This document shows positions 3,891-14,495 of a DNA stretch of 18,950 nucleotides, in pieces. A program made the position numbers and the translations under genes. The DNA comes from a virus (taxonomy: Duplodnaviria; Heunggongvirae; Uroviricota; Caudoviricetes), in IMG/VR virus record IMGVR_UViG_2778261447_000004, positions 1-18,950 of that record, one strand, 5' to 3'. Position 1 is the first letter of the stretch, and the number at the start of each line of letters is the position of its first letter. The notes beneath the pieces are model-generated. The model saw only the letters and a program-made list of their open reading frames with translations, did not search any database and had not been told where the DNA came from.

Positions 3891-4011
3891 GTGTCCGAAA
3901 AACAGCACAGGACGTTAAACGCGCTGGTGGTTGCGAATACAGGTCTTTCAGCTTGCTGGCTTTTTAGACAAGAGTTATTGGTATGTCATGTTAACCAGAA
4001 GGGAAAAAGAC

Positions 4012-4209
4012 ATGCTAAAACAGCAAGATATGACAGAAACCGCCAGAGTGGTGCTTAATGAATTAAGCGTCACCGAACCGGCGACCGTCGGGGAGATTGC
4101 GCAGAATACTTACCTTTCACGCGAATGCTGCCAGTTAATACTGACCCAGCTTGTTATGGCGGGCCTGGCAGATTATCAGTTCGGTTGTTACAGACGCCTT
4201 CCGCAGTGA
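4012..4209 (+). CDS. Small hypothetical protein, possibly winged-helix DNA-binding (65 aa from the ATG at 4012)
   Basis: ORF 3931-4209; the ATG at 4012 has GGGAAA upstream, with alternative starts at 3931, 3988 and 4030. Segment TVGEIAQNTYLSRECCQLILTQLVMAGLADY resembles a helix-turn-helix recognition helix plus wing. No family recognised. Confidence 0.4.
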   Translation: MLKQQDMTETARVVLNELSVTEPATVGEIAQNTYLSRECCQLILTQLVMAGLADYQFGCYRRLPQ

Positions 4210-4359
4210 AGGCTTTTTAATTTGTGGTAATGGGCGGCTGGTGGGTGTTAGCGGCACCTGCCAGCCATCTGCTCATGCGTTGGGGTCACAAGCAAACCTC
4301 AGGCCCATCTGCTTTGCGCAAAAGCGGTATGAGCCTATCAGAGAAGCGCTTATTGATCT

Positions 4360-5412
4360 ATGGCTAATACTGTAAAAATATCCAGTTGTGAGTTAATCAA
4401 CGCTGATTGCCTGGAATTTATCCAGACCTTACCGGAAAACTCTGTCGATCTGATTGTCACAGACCCGCCATACTTTAAAGTGAAACACGAAGGCTGGGAT
4501 AACCAGTGGAAGGGCGATGATGATTACCTGAAATGGCTGGATCAGTGTCTAGCGCAGTTCTGGCGGGTGTTAAAACCTGCCGGAAGCCTTTACCTGTTCT
4601 GCGGTCATCGTCTGGCATTTGATACCGAAATCATGATGCGTGAACGCTTTAATGTGCTGAACCACATTATCTGGGCGAAGCCGTCCGGACGATGGAACGG
4701 GTGCAATAAAGAAAGTCTGCGCGCATATTTTCCTGCCACAGAGCGCGTTCTGTTTGCTGAACATTACCAGGGGCCATATCGCGGCAAAAGTGACGGCTAT
4801 GCAGCAAAAGAAAGGGAACTCAAACAGCACATAATGGCACCGCTGATTTCGTATTTCAGGGATGCTCGTGCCGAACTGGGTATAACGGCAAAACAAATTG
4901 CCGAAGCCACAGGTAAGAAAAATATGGTTTCCCACTGGTTTGGTGCCAGTCAGTGGCAGTTGCCGAATGAGGCTGACTATCGGAAGTTACAGGCACTGTT
5001 TTCCCGTATAGCGGCAGAGAAGTTTCAGGAACAACAACTGGAACAACCACACCACCAGCTGGTGGCATCTTATGATTCACTGAATCGCAAATATTCTGAA
5101 TTGCTGGATGAGTTTAAATCTCTCCGGCGCTATTTCTCCGTATCAGTCTCCGTGCCTTATACCGATGTCTGGACGCATAAGCCCGTTCAGTTCTACCCGG
5201 GGAAACATCCGTGTGAGAAACCGGCGGATATGCTCAGACAAATAATCAATGCCAGTAGTCGACCAGGTGATCTGGTTGCTGATTTTTTTATGGGATCCGG
5301 TTCCACAATAAAAGCAGCAATGGCGCTGGGGCGTCGGGCCTTAGGTGTTGAGCTTGAGTCAGAGCGGTTTAATCAGACAGTGAAAGAGATAAACGAGCTG
5401 GTGGGGAAATAA
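4360..5412 (+). CDS. Orphan DNA methyltransferase, beta-class N6-adenine/N4-cytosine type (350 aa)
   Basis: Catalytic motif IV DPPY near the N-terminus (LIVTDPPYF) and SAM-binding motif I FxGxG near the C-terminus (DFFMGSGST). Motif IV before motif I is the beta-class order. No adjacent restriction endonuclease ORF. Confidence 0.85.
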
Positions 5413-5698: not shown

Positions 5699-6010
5699 AT
5701 GAATAAAAAATACGAACTGGTTATTAAAGGGATAAGTAGTCACCCGGATAAGGTTGTGGTTACTGTGGCGCTGGAGAGCGACGGCTATCCGACGCTGTTT
5801 TCGCCGCATGTGGTGATTAAGCTTGATCGTGTTGACGGCGCAGCGCTGGAGCTTTATGAAGCAGAGGCGAAAAAACGAGCGAAGAAGATTTTTATGGATG
5901 CTGCTGCCGGGTTATGTGAAGCGTGGTCGTTGCCGGAAAAGCGCCTCCATTCAGAGGCGCGGTATACCATAAAAATTAACGGTTCAGATAACTCAATTGC
6001 TGGTTTTTAA
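5699..6010 (+). CDS. Hypothetical protein between holin and endolysin (103 aa); possibly YdfR/DUF1327-like
   Basis: ATG with GGAGAG upstream, 3 nt after the holin stop. Same position and length as YdfR in the Qin prophage lysis cassette as I recall it. Sequence identity not verified. Confidence 0.55.
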   Translation: MNKKYELVIKGISSHPDKVVVTVALESDGYPTLFSPHVVIKLDRVDGAALELYEAEAKKRAKKIFMDAAAGLCEAWSLPEKRLHSEARYTIKINGSDNSIAGF

Positions 6011-6246
6011 CCTTTTGTCTCAGTTGGCTTTCCAATATCTTTCATTGGTAGCAGCATTTCGATATTGCTTTTGATATATGGATTATCTGCATGTTCTGTT
6101 AATTGATAAATGATAGCATTTTTTTCATTCTGGTCTAATACAGAAAACATAACTGCAATCATATATTTAAGAGCCTCAATTTCTCCTGTTGTTGAGTTGG
6201 GGGATGAACAGTCCGCTGTAACATTAATAAAAGTTTCTTTTTTCAT
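6007..6246 (-). CDS. Hypothetical small protein (79 aa), AT-rich antisense gene inside the lysis cassette
   Basis: ATG at 6246 preceded by AAGGA with 7-nt spacing. Visibly AT-rich compared with neighbours. Convergent with the 103-aa ORF, with a 4-bp overlap at the stops. No family recognised. Confidence 0.5.
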   Translation of the reverse strand: MKKETFINVTADCSSPNSTTGEIEALKYMIAVMFSVLDQNEKNAIIYQLTEHADNPYIKSNIEMLLPMKDIGKPTETKG

Positions 6247-6270
6247 ATCAGATCCTTAGATGGGGTAGCT

Positions 6271-6332
6271 CAGCCAACCACCCGAGCCTTAACCGGAACG
6301 CCAGTGCCCACTACACTACTGGCGGGCTGAGG
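6271..6332. other. Nested inverted repeats in the intergenic region between the antisense small gene and the endolysin
   Basis: CTCAGCC (6271-6277) pairs with GGCTGAG (6326-6332). Inner pair GCCAGT / ACTGGC has a 12-nt loop. No U-tract; function unknown. Confidence 0.3.
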
Positions 6333-6370: not shown

Positions 6371-6904
6371 ATGAGCACAAAAATCAGATACGGCCTGTCG
6401 GCTGCCGTTCTGGCGTTGATTGCTGCAGGTGCATCCGCTCCCGTCATTCTTGACCAGTTTCTGGACGAAAAAGAAGGTAATCACACTACGGCATACCGTG
6501 ATGGCTCCGGTATATGGACCATCTGTCGGGGTGCCACGATGGTGGATGGAAAACCCGTTTTTCCCGGTATGAAACTGTCGAAGGAAAAATGCGACCAGGT
6601 CAACGCTATCGAACGGGATAAGGCGCTGGCATGGGTGGAGCGCAATATTAAAGTTCCACTGACCGAAGCACAGAAAGCGGGTATTGCGTCATTCTGTCCC
6701 TATAACATTGGCCCCGGTAAGTGTTTCCCGTCGACGTTTTATAAGCGGCTTAATGCCGGTGATCGTAAAGGTGCCTGTGAGTCGATTCGCTGGTGGATTA
6801 AGGACGGTGGGCGTGATTGCCGCACACGTTCAAATAACTGCTACGGACAGGTTATTCGTCGTGACCAGGAAAGCGCATTAGCCTGTTGGGGGATAGATCA
6901 GTGA
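6371..6904 (+). CDS. R: SAR endolysin, T4-lysozyme-like muramidase (177 aa)
   Basis: N-terminal weakly hydrophobic Gly/Ala-rich signal-arrest-release segment [21 protein letters not shown]. Catalytic E-x8-D-x5-T triad in [16 protein letters not shown]. Pairs with a pinholin as in phage 21. Confidence 0.85.
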
Positions 6905-7365
6905 GAAGAGTAGTCGCGATTATCTCTGCTCTGGTTATCTGCATCATCGTCTGCCTGTCATGGGCTGTTAATCATTACCGTGATAACGCCATTACCTACA
7001 AAGCCCAGCGCGACAAAAATGCCAGAGAACTGAAGCTGGCGAACGTGGCAATTACTGACATGCAGATGCGTCAGCGTGATGTTGCTGCGCTCGATGCAAA
7101 ATACACGAAGGAGTTAGCTGATGCGAAAGCTGAAAATGATGCTCTGCGTGATGATGTTGCCGCTGGTCGTCGTCGGTTGCACATCAAAGCAGTCTGTCAG
7201 TCAGTGCGTGAAGCCACCACCGCCTCCGGCGTGGATAATGCAACCAGCCCCCGACTGGAAGACACCGCTGAACGGGATTATTTCACCCTCAGAGACCGAT
7301 TGATGACGATGCAGAAGCAACTGGAAGGGGCGCAGGAATATATCCGCACCCAGTGCATTAAGTAG
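6901..7365 (+). CDS. Rz: Spanin inner-membrane subunit Rz (i-spanin)
   Basis: GTG start overlapping the endolysin stop (GTGA). Product [44 protein letters not shown] is near-identical to lambda Rz. Confidence 0.85.
7121..7303 (+). CDS. Rz1: Spanin outer-membrane lipoprotein subunit Rz1 (o-spanin), embedded in Rz in the +1 frame
   Basis: Product [60 protein letters not shown] with lipobox VVGC and proline-rich stretch, near-identical to lambda Rz1. GGAG 7 nt upstream. Confidence 0.85.
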
Positions 7366-7388: not shown

Positions 7389-7595
7389 ATGAAGAAATTA
7401 CAGGTAACCGCAAAGCTCTTTAATGGAAGAATCCCGTTCCGGATTTTACAGCGTGGTCGTGTTCTGGCTGAAGGTACATTCAGTGGTAAATGCACGGAAT
7501 GTTATTCACGAATATATGAAGTGGATGCCTCGGATGAAGATATAACCGTTGAGTGTAATGCCGGGATTGTATCGGCCACATTGCTTCATGGGTGA
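7389..7595 (+). CDS. Hypothetical small protein (68 aa); stand-alone copy of a domain repeated in the 286-aa ORF
   Basis: ATG at 7389 preceded by AGGAG. By-eye alignment: KKLQVTAKLFNGRIPFRILQRGRVLAEGTFSGK...YEVDASDEDITVE...GIVSATLL versus residues about 113-185 of the 7961-8821 product KKALLVTANQLSGRVDFQVRQGGRVLVNDAFVGR...YDVDADDQDISIS...GIVLTAELL. Confidence 0.55.
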   Translation: MKKLQVTAKLFNGRIPFRILQRGRVLAEGTFSGKCTECYSRIYEVDASDEDITVECNAGIVSATLLHG

Positions 7596-7624: not shown

Positions 7625-7825
7625 ATGAATTACCAACTGGCAAAACTTTATCGTGGTAAACATTTCGCAGGGTATGGGATTGCAGTTAATGGTGAGTTAC
7701 TGGAAGGGCAGCTTTCCGCCAGGACAGAGTCACGTGGAGGCGAGCCACCAACAGTCACTGTGACTTTCAGACTGACAGCAGAACATATCGAGAATCAGCC
7801 CGTCATTCAACTGAACAGGGTGTGA
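7625..7825 (+). CDS. Hypothetical small protein (66 aa); weaker, possible third copy of the same domain
   Basis: ATG at 7625 with GGAGGA 9 nt upstream; a GTG at 7592 is the alternative start. AKLYRGKHFAGYGIAVNGELLEGQLSAR loosely aligns with AKLFNGRIPFRILQRGRVLAEGTFSGK of the preceding ORF. Confidence 0.5.
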   Translation: MNYQLAKLYRGKHFAGYGIAVNGELLEGQLSARTESRGGEPPTVTVTFRLTAEHIENQPVIQLNRV

Positions 7826-7832
7826 GGTATTT

Positions 7833-7961
7833 ATGCCATCACGAATCCCACGTGCCTGCCGTAAGCGTGGATGCGCAGGTACAATCACAGACAGTTCTGG
7901 TTACTGCGATAAACATCGTGTGCGACCGTGGTTGCTCGGTGTCTTTGTCAGGAGGTTTTGA
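7833..7961 (+). pseudogene. Short ORF (42 aa) resembling the N-terminal zinc-binding region of a phage HNH endonuclease; probable truncated remnant
   Basis: ATG at 7833 with GAGG 6 nt upstream. Product MPSRIPRACRKRGCAGTITDSSGYCDKHRVRPW... has the C-x3-GC ... GYC-x2-H pattern seen at the N-terminus of terminase-associated HNH endonucleases. Frame ends after 42 codons with TGA overlapping the ATG of the next ORF, where composition becomes AT-rich. Confidence 0.4.
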
Positions 7962-8821
7962 TGAAAGAGTTGCAAAAAATTAATTCAATAATGGAAAGGT
8001 TAAGTGCTCTTGAGCGTAAGCTGGACGATTGTGGAAAGCTGTGTGTTGAAAAGCAAAATGAGCTTTACCGGGAATTTTTTACAATCGTAAGTGAGCTGAT
8101 GCCAATTGTTAATAACTGCCTGATGACATCCAGATTTTTTAATGTCGATGCTACTACATCCAGAAAATTTTCTGTGAAAATTCAAGAAAGAGTTTCTGGT
8201 AGTGTGACAAGAGAGATGGCTGAACAGTTGGTGGCAATGAGCAATAAAACAAAAAGAAAAAAGGCATTGCTTGTAACAGCAAATCAGCTTTCAGGGCGCG
8301 TTGACTTTCAGGTCAGACAGGGTGGGCGTGTACTGGTAAATGATGCGTTCGTTGGACGTAGCTTTAGTCCTTACTCGATAAAATATGATGTTGATGCAGA
8401 TGATCAGGATATCAGCATTTCCTGGAAATCTGAGACAGCAGGGATTGTATTAACAGCAGAGTTGTTGAGTGATGATAAAAATGATGTCCAGCATCATTTG
8501 GACGAAAAGAATCATATTTCTGAAATTTGTATGAAGCCACGCAGCGGAATGACTTTATTGTCACGCACTCTTGCTGCTGGCTTTTCTGCACCGGAAAAAC
8601 GTGTGCTTCTGGTAGTGCCTGAAGATGCAGATATTCGACCACTGAATGGCTGTGATGTTATTAGTGCAAAAACATTGCATACCCGCGTCATTCCTGTACC
8701 GGATGTGGTCATTATTGATGATGTTGAGAAATGCAAGTCTGTTTCCTCAACTGCCACAATCAAGCGAATTTTACGTTGTAGCACGTCGGCTGTTGTATTC
8801 CGGAAGCAGTTACATAACTAA
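7961..8821 (+). CDS. Hypothetical protein (286 aa): N-terminal predicted helical region, central domain paralogous to the 68-aa ORF, unique C-terminal region
   Basis: ATG at 7961 with AGGAGG 5 nt upstream. Strongly AT-rich relative to the phage backbone. Internal domain homology described under 7389-7595. No family recognised. Confidence 0.65.
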   Translation: MKELQKINSIMERLSALERKLDDCGKLCVEKQNELYREFFTIVSELMPIVNNCLMTSRFFNVDATTSRKFSVKIQERVSGSVTREMAEQLVAMSNKTKRKKALLVTANQLSGRVDFQVRQGGRVLVNDAFVGRSFSPYSIKYDVDADDQDISISWKSETAGIVLTAELLSDDKNDVQHHLDEKNHISEICMKPRSGMTLLSRTLAAGFSAPEKRVLLVVPEDADIRPLNGCDVISAKTLHTRVIPVPDVVIIDDVEKCKSVSSTATIKRILRCSTSAVVFRKQLHN

Positions 8822-8944
8822 CCAGTTTTGTTTTGCAGAACATCCTCAACTAAAAGCTTATAGAAAGAGAGCCTGAGATATTTTTTCTGTCTCTCGTAGT
8901 TGTTTGTTTTTTTCGAACAGGCTTACAACTTACAGGATATAAAC

Positions 8945-9394
8945 ATGCAAGAAGAAGCAAATAAAATTCTTGTTGATTTATTGCAGAAGGCCAGCGATGG
9001 AATTGATTCCGCCATTGCATTCAGTCAGGCTCAGATTCCGGATGTTGTTCATCAGTTGCTGGTATGGAATATGGTTGATAGCCTGATTAAAACATTAATA
9101 GCCATTTCAACAATCCCTCTGGTTTTCTGGTTTATGAAGAAGCAGTGCCAAAGAGTTGAGACAGGTAAAATCGGTGATGAAGGATATTCATGGGAGAAGG
9201 GAAATCCCAAATACAGGCCGACAATGGTTTGGGATAGCAAAGGTGATATTAATCTTCTTATCGTGCCATTGGTTGGAGTTTTGACTATGTGGGGGATTTT
9301 TATTATTTGTGCAGTAACCAATATGACATGGTTAAAAATCTGGCTGGCACCTAAGTTATATCTAATCGAATACGCAGCATCACTAATTAAATAG
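8945..9394 (+). CDS. Hypothetical membrane protein with two predicted transmembrane helices (149 aa)
   Basis: ATG at 8945 with AGGA 7 nt upstream. Hydrophobic segments LIKTLIAISTIPLVFWFM and INLLIVPLVGVLTMWGIFIICAV. AT-rich. Followed by terminator-like hairpins. Confidence 0.6.
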   Translation: MQEEANKILVDLLQKASDGIDSAIAFSQAQIPDVVHQLLVWNMVDSLIKTLIAISTIPLVFWFMKKQCQRVETGKIGDEGYSWEKGNPKYRPTMVWDSKGDINLLIVPLVGVLTMWGIFIICAVTNMTWLKIWLAPKLYLIEYAASLIK

Positions 9395-9451
9395 TCCATT
9401 ACAAAAGCCATTCGCTACAGAGTGGCTTTGATAATGGCTTATGCCCTGTAC

Positions 9452-9477
9452 GGGATAACTTAACTGATATCCCTTTT
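9452..9477 (+). terminator. Putative rho-independent terminator closing the accessory cassette
   Basis: Stem GGGATA (9452-9457), 10-nt loop, stem TATCCC (9468-9473), then TTTT. A second weaker hairpin AAAGCCA...TGGCTTT lies at 9403-9428. Confidence 0.45.
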
Positions 9478-9688
9478 AACGGATAAAGGTATTCAAGCCT
9501 GACACATCATGCGCTGTATCGTCGCCGTATTCCCGTATTAACAGAGACCGTAGCCCGACGGGGAACTCCTCTGCGCGAGTGTGCGGGAATAATCAAAAAC
9601 GATGCACACCGGGTTTTACTGTGCTGACAGACGCAGGGTTACCCTCATAGTCGCTTTTCCGGTGCGATGGTGGAAGAAACCGGGATGT

Positions 9689-9883
9689 TTATTCATCATC
9701 TCTTTGGATTGATGTATATGCTCTCTTTTCTGACGTTAGTCTCCGACGGCAGGCTTCAATGACCCAGGCTGAGAAATTCCCGGACCCTTTTTGCTCAAGA
9801 GCGATGTTAATTTGTTCAATCATTTGGTTAGGAAAGCGGATGTTGCGGGTTGTTGTTCTGCGGGTTCTGTTCTTCGTTGACAT
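9689..9883 (-). CDS. Small ribbon-helix-helix-like DNA-binding protein (64 aa); resembles DUF3950/YlcI-type prophage proteins
   Basis: Product MSTKNRTRRTTTRNIRFPNQMIEQINIALEQKGSGNFSAWVIEACRRRL fits a ribbon-helix-helix pattern after a basic N-terminus. Only a weak ribosome-binding site. Family attribution is from memory. Confidence 0.5.
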   Translation of the reverse strand: MSTKNRTRRTTTRNIRFPNQMIEQINIALEQKGSGNFSAWVIEACRRRLTSEKRAYTSIQRDDE

Positions 9884-10031
9884 GAGGTTGCCCCGTATTC
9901 AGTGTCGCTGATTTGTATTGTCTGAAGTTGTTTTTACGTTAAGTTGATGCAGATCAATTAATACGATACCTGCGTCATAATTTATTATTTGACGTGGTTT
10001 GATGGCGTAGATGCACGTTGTGACATGTAGA

Positions 10032-10046
10032 TGATAATTATTATCA
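10032..10046. promoter_or_regulatory. Palindrome TGATAATTATTATCA matching the 7-1-7 Fur-box motif, about 35 bp upstream of cosN
   Basis: GATAAT-T-ATTATC is a perfect inverted repeat around a single central base (10033-10045). With flanking T and A it matches the Fur 7-1-7 consensus tGATAATnATTATCa. It could also be a chance AT-rich palindrome or a packaging-related site. Confidence 0.25.
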
Positions 10047-10081
10047 TTTTGCGGGTCCTTTCCGGCATGTGGACCGTTACG

Positions 10082-10093
10082 GGGCGTCGACCT
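10082..10093. other. cosN cohesive-end site (12-nt overhang), lambda-like
   Basis: GGGCGTCGACCT followed by CGCGGTTTTTCGCTATTTATGA matches the lambda left end GGGCGGCGACCTCGCGGGTTTTCGCTATTTATGA with one mismatch in the 12-mer. Preceded by GTTACG as at the lambda right end. Nu1 and A genes follow. Confidence 0.7.
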
Positions 10094-10309
10094 CGCGGTT
10101 TTTCGCTATTTATGAGATTTTTTGAGGGGGTGGTTGTTGTTTAATTGTTTGGTATATCTAATTGATAAGTAAGGTGAAAATAAAATAAATACAACAACCT
10201 TACGATGTGCTTTGATGTCATTAATGTGAAAAAATTAAATGATATCAAATGGTTTTGTAAAAACACATGGTTGTTGTATCGCTTTTTATCGATGACTTAT
10301 GGAGAGGAG

Positions 10310-10816
10310 ATGGCCTTTTTATTGAATAAAAGTGATATGGCCTCCTCCATCGGTATCTCTGTTCAGGCATTTGATAAATGGGGCGTTCCTCCTGTCGAGC
10401 GTCGGGGGAGGGAAGTTTTTTATGACGTTAAAACTGTACTGGAGATAGATCGCGAGCGGCGACAACACAATCATAGAACACCTGATGACGGGGGCGATCT
10501 GGAGGAAAGGCTGCTTCGGGCCAGAGCTGAACTGACAGAAGAACAGGCCGTAGCTCAAAAACTTAAAAATCAGGTAACCGAAGGTAAGCTCATCGATTCA
10601 GACTTCTGCGTTTTCGCCCTCAGCAAGCTGGCGATGGCATTGTCCAGTACGCTTGATTCTATTCCGTTATCCATGCAGCGACAGTTCCCGGATTTAACGC
10701 CACGTCATCTTGACCATCTGAAAACCCTTATTGCGAAGGGCGCAAATCAGTGTGCGCGGGCAGGGGATAAATTACCGGATTTGCTGGATGAATATATCAG
10801 AGCAACAACTGAATAA
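10310..10816 (+). CDS. nu1: Terminase small subunit Nu1
   Basis: ATG at 10310 with GGAGAGGAG upstream. Alignable to lambda Nu1: ALSKLAMALSSTLDSIPLSMQRQFPDLTPRHLDHLK versus VLSRIAGEIASILDGLPLSVQRRFPELENRHVDFLK. Stop overlaps the start of A as in lambda. Confidence 0.8.
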   Translation: MAFLLNKSDMASSIGISVQAFDKWGVPPVERRGREVFYDVKTVLEIDRERRQHNHRTPDDGGDLEERLLRARAELTEEQAVAQKLKNQVTEGKLIDSDFCVFALSKLAMALSSTLDSIPLSMQRQFPDLTPRHLDHLKTLIAKGANQCARAGDKLPDLLDEYIRATTE

Positions 10817-12716
10817 TCTGATGGCTGCCGTTTCGGTTGCGCTGCAGCCTCTGGTCAGGGTTGTACCGATGACGGCAGTTGAATGGGCTGACCAGTATTA
10901 TTATCTGCCGAAAGAATCCTCATACGGTGACGGCGAATGGAAAACGCTGCCGTTCCAGATCGCCATCATGAACAGTATGGGGAATGATCAGGTCCGCACT
11001 GTTAATCTGATTAAATCTGCCCGTATTGGTTATACAAAGATGTTGCTGGGGGTGGTCGGGTATTTTATTGAGCATAAATCCCGAAACAGTCTGCTTTTTC
11101 AGCCCACGGATTCTGCCGCTGAAGATTTTATGAAGTCTCACGTGGAGACGACGATTAGGGATGTGCCATGTCTGAAAGACCTTTCTCCATGGCTGGGGCG
11201 TAAACATCGTGACAATACTCTCACGCTGAAACGCTTTTCATCGGGTGTGGGCTTCTGGTGCCTGGGTGGTGCGGCAGCAAAAAACTACCGTGAAAAATCC
11301 GTGGACGTGGTCTGCTATGACGAACTCTCATCGTTTGAACCTGATGTTGAAAAAGAGGGCTCGCCAACCCTGCTGGGGGATAAGCGTATTGAGGGCTCTG
11401 TATGGCCAAAATCCATTCGCGGCTCGACGCCTAAAATCAAAGGCTCCTGCCAGATCGAAAAAGCCGCTAACGAGTCGGCACATTTCATGCGTTTTTATGT
11501 GCCCTGCCCGCACTGTGGGGAGGAGCAGTATCTGAAATTTGGCGATGAATCCACGCCTTTTGGCCTTAAATGGGAGAAGGACAGCCCCGAAAGCGTTTTC
11601 TACCTTTGTGAGCATCATGGCTGTGTGATCCATCAGTCTGAGCTTGACCAGAGTAACGGGCGGTGGATCTGTGAAAACACGGGCATGTGGACCCGTGACG
11701 GCCTGATGTTTTTCAGCGCCCGGGGTGATGAAATTCCGCCGCCGCGTTCCATCACTTTCCATATCTGGACGGCGTACAGTCCGTTCACCACCTGGGTACA
11801 GATTGTCTATGACTGGCTGGATGCACTGAAAGATCCCAACGGCCTGAAAACCTTTGTGAACACCACGCTGGGCGAGACCTGGGAAGAGGCCGTGGGCGAA
11901 AAACTCGATCACCAGGTACTGATGGATAAGGTTGTGCGTTACACGGCGGCGGTGCCTGCCCGGGTGGTTTATCTGACGGCGGGCATTGACTCGCAGCGAA
12001 ACCGTTTTGAGATGTATGTCTGGGGATGGGCTCCGGGAGAGGAAGCCTTTCTGGTGGATAAAATCATTATTATGGGGCGTCCCGATGAGGAAGAGACGCT
12101 GTTACGTGTGGATGCAGCGATCAACAAAAAATACTGCCATGCAGACGGAACCGAAATGACCATTTCCCGTGTCTGCTGGGACATCGGGGGGATCGATGGA
12201 GAAATCGTTTATCAGAGGTCAAAAAAACACGGTGTTTTCCGGGTGCTGCCGGTAAAAGGCGCATCTGTCTATGGCAAGCCGGTGATCACCATGCCAAAAA
12301 CCCGCAATCAGCGGGGCGTGTATCTGTGTGAAGTGGGGACAGACACCGCAAAAGAAATTCTCTATGCCCGTATGAAAGCCGCTCCCACGCCTGCGGATGA
12401 ATCCACGTCGTATGCCATCCGTTTTCCTGATGATCCGGAGATTTTTTCGCAGACAGAGGCGCAGCAACTGGTCGCGGAAGAGCTTGTGGAGAAGTGGGAA
12501 AAAGGAAAGATGCGTCTGCTGTGGGATAACAAAAAGCGGCGTAACGAAGCGCTGGACTGCCTGGTGTATGCCTACGCGGCATTACGTGTGTCCGTGCAAC
12601 GCTGGCAGCTTGATCTGGCTGTACTGGCAAAATCCCGGGAAGAAGAGACGACCCGGCCAACCCTTAAAGAACTGGCAGCGAAGCTGTCCGGAGGAGTGAA
12701 TGGTTACAGTCGCTGA
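10788..12716 (+). CDS. A: Terminase large subunit gpA (642 aa)
   Basis: Starts MNISEQQLNN (lambda MNISNSQVNR). Long collinear identity to lambda gpA including TAVEWAD, YYLPKES, MKRF..G.GFWCLGG and CPHCGEEQYLKFGD. Confidence 0.95.
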   Translation: MNISEQQLNNLMAAVSVALQPLVRVVPMTAVEWADQYYYLPKESSYGDGEWKTLPFQIAIMNSMGNDQVRTVNLIKSARIGYTKMLLGVVGYFIEHKSRNSLLFQPTDSAAEDFMKSHVETTIRDVPCLKDLSPWLGRKHRDNTLTLKRFSSGVGFWCLGGAAAKNYREKSVDVVCYDELSSFEPDVEKEGSPTLLGDKRIEGSVWPKSIRGSTPKIKGSCQIEKAANESAHFMRFYVPCPHCGEEQYLKFGDESTPFGLKWEKDSPESVFYLCEHHGCVIHQSELDQSNGRWICENTGMWTRDGLMFFSARGDEIPPPRSITFHIWTAYSPFTTWVQIVYDWLDALKDPNGLKTFVNTTLGETWEEAVGEKLDHQVLMDKVVRYTAAVPARVVYLTAGIDSQRNRFEMYVWGWAPGEEAFLVDKIIIMGRPDEEETLLRVDAAINKKYCHADGTEMTISRVCWDIGGIDGEIVYQRSKKHGVFRVLPVKGASVYGKPVITMPKTRNQRGVYLCEVGTDTAKEILYARMKAAPTPADESTSYAIRFPDDPEIFSQTEAQQLVAEELVEKWEKGKMRLLWDNKKRRNEALDCLVYAYAALRVSVQRWQLDLAVLAKSREEETTRPTLKELAAKLSGGVNGYSR

Positions 12717-12906
12717 ACTGCAGGCGCTGCGTCAGGCGCGCCTTGATTTATTAACCGGTAAACGGGTGGTGTCTGTCCAGAAAGATGGTCGCAGAATTGA
12801 ATATACGGCGGCTTCTCTGGATGAGCTTAACCGGGCGATCAATGATGCGGAGTCGGTACTGGGGACAACCCGACGTCGCCGTCGTCCGCTGGGAGTGAGG
12901 TTATGA
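12700..12906 (+). CDS. W: Head-tail joining protein gpW (68 aa)
   Basis: LLTGKRVVSVQKDGRRIEYTAAS matches lambda gpW [23 protein letters not shown]. Same length as lambda W; overlaps the end of A. Confidence 0.85.
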   Translation: MVTVAELQALRQARLDLLTGKRVVSVQKDGRRIEYTAASLDELNRAINDAESVLGTTRRRRRPLGVRL

Positions 12907-14495
12907 AAAGAACGCCTGTCCTGATTGATGTGAACGGCGTTCCGCTTCGTGAGAGTCTCAGCTACAACGGGGGCGGCGCAGGATTTGGCGGGCAAATGGA
13001 GGAGTGGTTGCCACCGGCGCAGAGTGCCGATGCGGCCCTGCTGCCCGCGTTGCGTCTGGGGAATGCCCGGGCAGATGATCTGGTGCGTAATAACGGAATA
13101 GCGGCTAATGCGGTGGCTCTGCATAAGGATCACATTGTCGGGCATATGTTTCTGATCAGCTACCGTCCGAACTGGCGCTGGCTGGGGATGCGGGAGACCG
13201 CAGCAAAAAGCTTTGTCGATGAGGTGGAGGCGGCCTGGTCGGAATACGCCGAAGGGATGTCTGGCGAGATCGACGTGGAAGGAAAACGCACGTTCACGGA
13301 ATTTATCCGTGAAGGTGTGGGCGTTCATGCGTTTAACGGCGAAATCTTTGTGCAGCCGGTCTGGGATGCGGAGACTACGCAGCTGTTTCGTACGCGTTTT
13401 AAAGCCGTGAGTCCGAAACGGGTGGACACGCCAGGATACGGTTTGGGGAACCGCTTTCTGCGGGCCGGGGTGGAGGTCGATCGGCATGGACGGGCCGTTG
13501 CGTACCATATCTGTGAGGATGATTTTCCGCTCTCTGGTAGTGGACGATGGGAACGGATCCCGCGTGAACTTCCCACCGGGCGTCCGGCCATGCTGCATAT
13601 TTTCGAGCCGGTTGAGGACGGGCAGACCCGTGGGGCTAATCAGTTTTACAGCGTCATGGAACGGCTGAAAATGCTCGATTCCCTGCAGGCAACACAGCTT
13701 CAGTCAGCCATAGTGAAGGCGATGTATGCAGCGACGATTGAAAGTGAACTTGATACCGAAAAGGCCTTTGAATATATCGCCGGTGCGCCGGAGGGGCAGA
13801 AGGATAATCCGCTTATTAATATTCTGGAGAAGTTCTCCAGCTGGTATGACACGAATAACGTGACACTGGGCGGTGTCAAAATTCCGCACCTTTTCCCCGG
13901 TGATGATCTGAAACTACAGACTGCGCAGGATTCAGACAATGGATTTTCTGCGCTTGAACAGGCGCTGCTGCGGTATATCGCCGCCGGTCTTGGCGTTTCC
14001 TACGAACAGTTGTCCCGTGATTACTCGAAGGTCAGTTATTCAAGTGCCCGCGCCTCCGCCAATGAGTCGTGGCGCTATTTTATGGGGCGGCGAAAATTTA
14101 TTGCGGCCCGGCTGGCCACGCAGATGTTTTCCTGCTGGCTGGAAGAGGCTCTTCTGCGGGGGATTATTCGTCCGCCACGGGCGCGTTTTGATTTTTATCA
14201 GGCGCGTTCATCCTGGTCACGGGCAGAGTGGATTGGAGCCGGAAGAATGGCCATTGACGGGCTCAAGGAGGTCCAGGAATCGGTGATGCGCATTGAGGCC
14301 GGACTGAGCACGTATGAGAAAGAGCTGGCGCTGATGGGTGAGGATTATCAGGACATTTTCCGCCAGCAGGTCAGGGAATCTGCAGAGCGGGAAAAAGCCG
14401 GACTCTCACGTCCGGTGTGGATAGCGCAGGCGTATCAGCAGCAGATAGCGGCGAGTCGCAGGCCGGAAGAGGAGACAACACCACGTGAGACGTAA
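12903..14495 (+). CDS. B: Portal protein gpB (530 aa)
   Basis: N-terminus MKRTPVLIDVNGVPLRESLSYNGGGAGFGGQM is essentially identical to lambda gpB as I recall it. ATGA overlap with W. Confidence 0.95.
   Translation: MKRTPVLIDVNGVPLRESLSYNGGGAGFGGQMEEWLPPAQSADAALLPALRLGNARADDLVRNNGIAANAVALHKDHIVGHMFLISYRPNWRWLGMRETAAKSFVDEVEAAWSEYAEGMSGEIDVEGKRTFTEFIREGVGVHAFNGEIFVQPVWDAETTQLFRTRFKAVSPKRVDTPGYGLGNRFLRAGVEVDRHGRAVAYHICEDDFPLSGSGRWERIPRELPTGRPAMLHIFEPVEDGQTRGANQFYSVMERLKMLDSLQATQLQSAIVKAMYAATIESELDTEKAFEYIAGAPEGQKDNPLINILEKFSSWYDTNNVTLGGVKIPHLFPGDDLKLQTAQDSDNGFSALEQALLRYIAAGLGVSYEQLSRDYSKVSYSSARASANESWRYFMGRRKFIAARLATQMFSCWLEEALLRGIIRPPRARFDFYQARSSWSRAEWIGAGRMAIDGLKEVQESVMRIEAGLSTYEKELALMGEDYQDIFRQQVRESAEREKAGLSRPVWIAQAYQQQIAASRRPEEETTPRET

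Follow-up and report, generated by a model that had tools for sequence, protein, structure and literature searches.

The 18,950-nucleotide stretch of viral DNA analysed here, referred to as the window, corresponds to the late region of an E. coli lambdoid prophage. Between its lysis genes and its cos it carries an open reading frame of 42 codons, the stop codon of which overlaps the start of a 286-aa gene. The question raised by this locus is whether so short a frame is what recombination left of a longer gene, a functional peptide or leader, or an artefact. In the initial annotation, it was read as the N-terminus of a terminase-associated HNH endonuclease, cut short by an insertion or a replacement at the boundary of an AT-rich insert, with a leader peptide coupled to the next gene as the alternative. 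Based on the comparisons reported here, the ORF would be, with a probability of about 0.9, a pseudogene remnant from one illegitimate recombination between two lambdoid phage genomes. The features needed for the argument are the following.

4360-5412, plus strand: DNA methylase gene
6371-6904: lysozyme gene
6886-7365: Rz
7389-7595, plus strand: 68-aa ORF just after Rz
7625-7825, plus strand: 66-aa ORF, phrog_10235 (E=9.5e-30)
7833-7961, plus strand: 42-codon chimeric ORF (HNH remnant), stop included; ATG start; peptide MPSRIPRACRKRGCAGTITDSSGYCDKHRVRPWLLGVFVRRF
7833-7920, plus strand: HNH-derived part of this ORF, codons 1-29 and 1 nt, with the zinc-ribbon pattern C9-x4-C14 ... C25-x2-H28
7920-7937, no strand assigned: putative decayed N15-type SopB centromere repeat GTGCGACCGTGGTTGCTC, 18 bp, from a sequence match
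7950-8887, plus strand: 938-bp indel cassette with a Shine-Dalgarno sequence and the 286-aa gene; two relatives (L002 and L131) join 7949 to 8888
7961-8821, plus strand: 286-aa gene, phrog_2571
8945-9394, plus strand: 149-aa gene, phrog_3054, predicted membrane protein, part of the incoming module
9396-9695, plus strand: non-coding segment X, matched at 90% by positions 4001-4303 of locus L129
9689-9883, minus strand: ylcI
10082-10093, plus strand: probable lambda-type cosN cohesive end GGGCGTCGACCT, followed by GCGGTTTTTCGCTATTTATGAG, as read from the sequence
10205-12716, plus strand: lambda-type terminase, Nu1-family small subunit and then gpA (PF07471, E=2e-20)
10791-12716, plus strand: gpA large subunit with an ATPase domain and its own endonuclease domain (PF05876, E=1.1e-54; PF20454, E=2.9e-70)
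after the terminase: gpW, lambda-family portal, S49 protease and E-type capsid protein

The layout of the ORF is as initially described. A GAGG motif lies 5-8 nt 5' of the ATG, and the A of the TGA at 7959-7961 is also the first base of the ATG at 7961-7963, where the 286-aa gene starts; this gene has a separate AGGAGG at 7950-7955. No promoter or terminator above shuffle expectation was detected near 7800-8000, no Rfam family reached its gathering score in the whole window, the tRNA scan found none, and the predicted RNA fold of the junction region is no better than that of shuffled sequences (z=-0.4).

HNH identity of the short frame

A search of the peptide against phage HNH endonucleases, proposed with the initial annotation, revealed similarity within its first 34 residues. 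The PHROG profile phrog_144 (HNH endonuclease) matches aa 1-31 with E=6.7e-8, and in tblastn the phiP27 HNH protein is 85% identical over aa 1-34 (E=8e-13), as are the HNH endonucleases of several E. coli phages. At the DNA level, the frame is ~97% identical to intact E. coli 116-aa HNH genes (WP_001140099.1) up to base 7920, being separated from them by three substitutions only, two synonymous and one causing T18I. This similarity is far above chance, and the assignment of the Cys/His N-terminus to terminase-associated HNH proteins thereby holds. The homology was detected solely by BLAST and the PHROG profile, neither Pfam nor NCBIfam having matched the 42-aa peptide or the 62-aa peptide of a relative. 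An N-terminal zinc ribbon (CxxxxC ... CxxH) has been defined for HNH endonucleases of this kind, named Group 1 by Xu and Gupta in 2013 (PMC3592412), and the pattern is complete in the remnant (C9-x4-C14, C25-x2-H28).

What follows the zinc ribbon in the intact protein is absent. The 116-aa HNH protein aligns end to end, from residue 1, with the structure of a Geobacillus phage HNH endonuclease (PDB code: 5H0M), and its catalytic domain (PF01844) occupies aa 66-112. Of this domain there is no trace in the whole window, where a tblastn search with the intact protein found nothing past aa 34 in any frame and no other HNH piece. The remnant lacks the His-Asn-His residues, the [CxxC]2 motif and PF01844 that define the catalytic domain. 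Nor does it lie beside a P27/HK97-type terminase, the downstream terminase being lambda Nu1 plus gpA, with the 286-aa, 149-aa and ylcI genes in between. Judged by its sequence, the ORF at 7833-7961 would be an HNH remnant and no working member of the family.

In strains TUM1886 and 135, the NCBI annotation gives a near-identical sequence the label "HNH endonuclease, incomplete; missing C-terminus". The remnant is, in this respect, an ordinary recombination scar that already stood in the records as an incomplete HNH pseudogene. Annotation across records is inconsistent: in E. coli TUM9803 (NZ_CP135671.1, 2258592-2258656, homologous to window 7885-7949), the remnant is labelled "DUF8602 domain-containing protein" and is not marked as a pseudogene.

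Two parental arrangements and the junction

Alignment with prophages that carry an intact HNH gene, which had also been suggested, mapped the breakpoint at 7920. On its left side, the window corresponds to a prophage type represented by L006, where the same 66-aa ORF lies directly 5' of an intact 116-aa HNH gene followed by the small and large terminase genes (P27-family TerS + TerL); identity over window 7640-7925 is 97.2%, and the 66-aa ORF accompanies the HNH gene in this prophage type. In the three loci inspected (L004, phiP27, which is L005, and L006), the intact HNH gene is directly 5' of the small and then the large terminase, with the portal next; L004 and L006 have a small terminase assigned to the P27 family, and that of the remaining locus is unclassified. 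On its right side, the window corresponds to L129, a chromosomal prophage of E. coli LH50-c, with 98.7% identity running uninterrupted over window 7920-13499 (5.6 kb) and continuing to the end of the fetched locus. The first homologous base on this side is the first base of a perfect palindrome in L129. Codons 30-42 of the ORF are consequently incoming DNA, made of the palindrome and a spacer.

In an ungapped four-way alignment, identity with the intact HNH genes persists through 7920 and identity with the right parent starts at 7920, an overlap of 1 nt. If the partner was instead a copy of the repeat proximal to DUF4406, the overlap becomes 5 nt (TCGTG, 7916-7920). No right parent with this 5-nt context directly 5' of the palindrome and 286-aa gene (IR-286) is present among the fetched loci; the exact right-hand parent was not found, and the sampled parents with the order X, palindrome, 286-aa gene give only 1 nt of microhomology. 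With either copy of the repeat, the aligned sequences point to an illegitimate join at the level of microhomology (1-5 nt). The two parents, the abrupt switch between them and the few shared nucleotides are those of a mosaic junction; in the general model of phage mosaicism, the mosaic module junctions of lambdoid phages are produced by illegitimate recombination.

The truncated gene does mark the left junction of acquired DNA, with L006 and L129 typifying the two parents. As to whether it is the scar of an insertion or of a replacement, only the second alternative stands: since the homology on the right runs through cos and the lambda-type terminase, the whole packaging module would have been replaced and nothing inserted into the HNH gene, and tblastn detected no right-hand HNH junction within the window. 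The boundary of an AT-rich insert needs a similar correction. The GC profile, computed as had been advised, shows a step from 0.51 (7651-7950) to 0.37 (7951-8250) across the 3' end of the ORF, but the 286-aa gene belongs to a separate 938-bp indel in the incoming DNA. The flanks of this cassette present TGTC microhomology and imperfect GrTATCTTTGTC-like direct repeats.

The HNH region is matched by ~1,000 of the 5,426 complete E. coli genomes and the short junction query by ~900, whereas the join of HNH to palindrome occurs, according to BLAST, in 16 of them. Several of these 16 are one strain deposited more than once, and different countries and hosts are represented. The same join is found in one IMG/VR contig, and an exact scan of the GTDB species representatives did not find it. 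Each junction sequence inspected has the same two substitutions in the palindrome. Only one genome, TUM1886, shares the 42-aa form with the window; the remaining 15 junction genomes match only to 7949. Two sequences of the strain-135 type were examined (L002 and L131), both without bases 7950-8887, and in L002 the remnant ORF reads on into a different 62-aa tail. Because the junction and the two palindrome substitutions are the same across copies, the data point to one origin of the truncation, with the 286-aa cassette probably lost or gained afterwards.

These observations bear directly on two other explanations of the short ORF. An error of sequencing or assembly, or an HNH gene broken by no more than a frameshift or nonsense mutation, would account for the length of the ORF and for nothing else; past codon 34, no frame of the window contains HNH-like sequence, 16 complete genomes and one metagenomic viral contig share the identical junction, and each flank matches a different parent over hundreds to thousands of bases. 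With the flank alignments and the tblastn search of the window refuting it, its probability is practically nil. A functional short ORF, either a stand-alone zinc-ribbon peptide or a leader that couples translation to the 286-aa gene through TGATG, is regarded as very unlikely. The good ribosome-binding site, the ATG and the CxxxxC...CxxH pattern are all intact, the stop codon overlaps the downstream ATG, translating ribosomes would melt a weak hairpin at 7922-7935, and stand-alone zinc-ribbon proteins beside HNH genes are described in other phages (PMC3592412). Against a leader, the 286-aa gene is equipped with its own strong ribosome-binding site, and the upstream ORF is not kept with the downstream gene among relatives: all 17 sampled perfect-palindrome copies of IR-286 are preceded by the unrelated sequence GTATTCAGGAGC (segment X), the 286-aa gene is lacking from L002 and L131, whose BLAST pattern is shared by 15 of the 16 junction genomes, and the 42-aa form, far from being an intact short gene of many phages, was found in one of 5,426 genomes. 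The leader alternative of the initial annotation is for these reasons not supported, although incidental translational coupling may occur in this lineage. Against a peptide, the catalytic HNH partner is absent from the window, and every phage match listed (13 reach aa 33-34) belongs to a full-length gene for an HNH or homing endonuclease, or to a stretch without annotation, with no zinc-ribbon-only version among them. The remnant reading has its own difficulty in that the start codon, the ribosome-binding site and the complete zinc-ribbon motif are intact; with three substitutions only it may not be decaying, and a residual role may exist.

The incoming module and the palindrome at its edge

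The DNA to the right of the junction is a lambda-type module preceded by accessory genes. Homologues of the 286-aa protein are confined to Escherichia (15 clusters), neither Pfam nor NCBIfam matches it, and its AlphaFold model has a mean pLDDT of 53.7, which, with a shallow Escherichia-only alignment, is too poor for a fold search. PADLOC assigned no defence system to the 286-aa, 149-aa, 68-aa or 66-aa proteins. The module formed by palindrome and 286-aa gene occurs in 48 of the 5,426 genomes, with 37 of its places on chromosomes and 15 on plasmids. The product of the 68-aa ORF at 7389-7595 shares 45% identity with residues 101-169 of the 286-aa protein encoded 400 bp downstream (BLASTP E=3e-14) and also matches phrog_2571 at profile positions 100-158, being either a free-standing copy or a fragment of the central beta-rich domain of that protein.

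Segment X, which has no Rfam match, is 84% identical over window 9511-9695 to the stretch between two palindromes of L127 and L130. A second X copy (a segment of 190-300 bp, 84-90% identical; L127 17779-17965) lies just 5' of the palindrome in the right-parent type and in N15-like plasmids, and in these relatives the cassette of palindrome, 286-aa gene and 149-aa gene is bracketed by direct X repeats. The window holds the downstream X copy only, the upstream copy having been lost at the HNH junction. Beyond ylcI, the cohesive end GGGCGTCGACCT shows one difference from GGGCGGCGACCT, which we take to be the lambda cohesive end; that of N15 is GGGCGGCGTCCG.

Upstream of the lysis genes, the N6/N4 DNA methylase gene (4360-5412) shows 67-69% DNA identity to the methylase genes that occupy the equivalent position in N15 and an N15-like plasmid, and is another module common to this prophage and the telomere phage-plasmids. 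A low-GC patch at 5850-6300 (0.36-0.39), between a DUF1327 gene and the lysozyme gene, contains a minus-strand 79-aa ORF (6007-6246) and resembles an insertion of moron type into the lysis cassette.

The edge of the incoming DNA carries the 18-bp element GTGCGACCGTGGTTGCTC, a two-mismatch copy (16/18) of the palindrome GTGCGACCGTGGTCGCAC. With respect to the consensus GTGCGACC-NN-GGTCGCAC, the left arm is conserved in 8 of 8 positions and the right arm in 6 of 8, so that its symmetry is broken. It is the only match in the window, where 0.01 would be expected by chance. Perfect copies occupy the homologous place in L129 (4309-4326), L130, L003 and L127, and occur as well in the plasmids of ~46 kb that have the 286-aa and 149-aa genes in common with the window; the perfect palindrome of L129 folds somewhat better than shuffled sequences (z=-2.05). 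This palindrome forms the core common to IR1-IR4, four centromere sites that bind SopB and are dispersed over N15 (Lane and colleagues, PMC7205306, Table 4). In the N15 record, one IR site lies within repA, another follows the Q-like gene, a third follows gene 51, and the fourth is found near the right end, between genes 58 and 59. Candidate functions as an operator, a terminator or a restriction site were dropped once this match to the literature had been made. Plasmid pEC21Z151-46K, which is N15-like (protelomerase, SopA, a ParB-family protein and the CyRepA1 replication protein), has five palindrome sites, the last two just 5' of the 286-aa gene; in L127 the palindromes are at 7889, 10332, 14711, 17751 and 17971. 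By sequence match, the incoming module starts with a putative N15-type partition site. The 18.9-kb window contains no sopA or sopB in its ORF lists and Pfam scans. Since the chromosomes of TUM1886 and strain 135, as recorded, contain near-identical sequence with the same junction, the window probably comes from an integrated prophage, in which plasmid partition would not be needed.

The position of the palindrome raises the possibility that it directed the join, bound by SopB or extruded as a hairpin and causing replication to stall or DNA to break, with N15-type repeats acting as hot spots of mosaicism. This we consider unlikely. The right-parent homology does begin exactly at the first base of the palindrome, and two direct copies flank segment X in N15-like plasmids. 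When the 40-nt flanks of 157 palindrome instances were clustered, one left flank of the lysis-to-cos region (the end of X) had four unrelated partners on its right, one right flank was found with two different left flanks, and the DUF4406-end flank with two different right flanks, in each case among the IMG/VR matches listed. At the counterparts of IR1-IR3, flanks that differ resemble, among the matches listed, ordinary divergence and not mosaicism. Moreover, the palindrome lies within the Rz-to-cos stretch, where the compared loci differ in accessory genes and a coincidence of boundaries is expected anyway; in the IR4-type context the break is ~14 nt from the repeat, and the left-parent side resembles the site over 1-5 nt only. 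It is likewise doubtful that palindromes, including those of integrated lambdoid prophages, serve generally as preferred breakpoints of module exchange through a SopB roadblock or a cruciform, and improbable that recombination directed by partition sites shapes the accessory region from lysis genes to cos in E. coli phages, with the HNH truncation among its products. The repeat would be compatible with a conserved island at module borders as well as with a recombination hot spot. The perfect palindrome was found by exact scan in at least 120 IMG/VR stretches, with up to four copies per stretch among the matches listed. The form GTGCGACC-NN-GGTCGCAC is widespread in enterobacterial phage contigs (IMG/VR loci L007-L126), integrated lambdoid prophages included.

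Origin of the remnant and relation to known systems

The course of events most consistent with these data is a single illegitimate exchange. The left partner would have been a prophage with a late operon in which lysis genes were followed by the 66-aa ORF, the 116-aa HNH gene, a P27-family small terminase and the large terminase. The right partner would have been a second lambdoid phage, whose packaging module was of lambda type and came after an accessory cassette that is also found in N15-like telomere phage-plasmids and begins with an N15-type SopB centromere repeat. Their DNAs would have been joined at 7920, after HNH codon 29, with 1 nt shared or 5 nt (TCGTG) if the DUF4406-proximal copy took part, and the catalytic HNH domain, the old cos and the old terminase would have been lost in the exchange. 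Having kept its ribosome-binding site and start, the remnant probably still yields, on translation, a zinc-ribbon peptide of 42 aa that ends in a nonsense tail. Its overlap with the 286-aa gene at TGATG seems accidental because the TGA happens to be the first in-frame stop after the junction.

To our knowledge, a lambda-type terminase has no need for an HNH partner, and lambda encodes none. Since gpA has an endonuclease domain of its own and lambda does without such a partner, loss of the HNH gene would have cost the recombinant nothing. In HK97, by comparison, the HNH protein gp74 is needed for cos cleavage, "unlike lambda" (PMC9410871).

As a scar, the remnant is of the textbook type, recording the exchange of an HNH-dependent packaging module for a lambda-type one, and it is useful as a precise, dated marker of this exchange, with one origin and a presence in 16 of 5,426 complete E. 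coli genomes. What this analysis adds to the existing annotation is that the junction would abut a decayed N15-type centromere repeat. That an N15-like partition repeat has been carried into integrated prophages and lies at several mosaic joints is of more interest than the remnant itself. The chromosomal palindromes might interact with SopB supplied by a co-resident N15-like plasmid, and the hot-spot proposal, if true, would link plasmid-partition biology to phage mosaicism.

Compared with the terminase-associated HNH endonucleases (HK97 gp74, phiP27 L34, WP_001140099.1 and 5H0M), the remnant agrees in its first 29 residues, its ribosome-binding site and its upstream neighbour; however, it lacks everything after codon 29, and the adjoining terminase is lambda Nu1/gpA and not of the P27/HK97 type. 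The palindrome resembles N15 IR4 and the fourth and fifth repeats of pEC21Z151-46K in lying between lysis-region genes and cos, and differs from the N15 repeats by the two substitutions in its right arm; N15 IR1-IR4 are in turn related to sopC of the F plasmid. Finally, the junction corresponds to the mosaic junctions of lambdoid phages in its switch of parentage within 1-5 nt, its location near a gene boundary of the incoming side, the gene fragment left behind and the step in composition. Nothing essential distinguishes it from them, the sole unusual point being the partition-site palindrome at the incoming edge.
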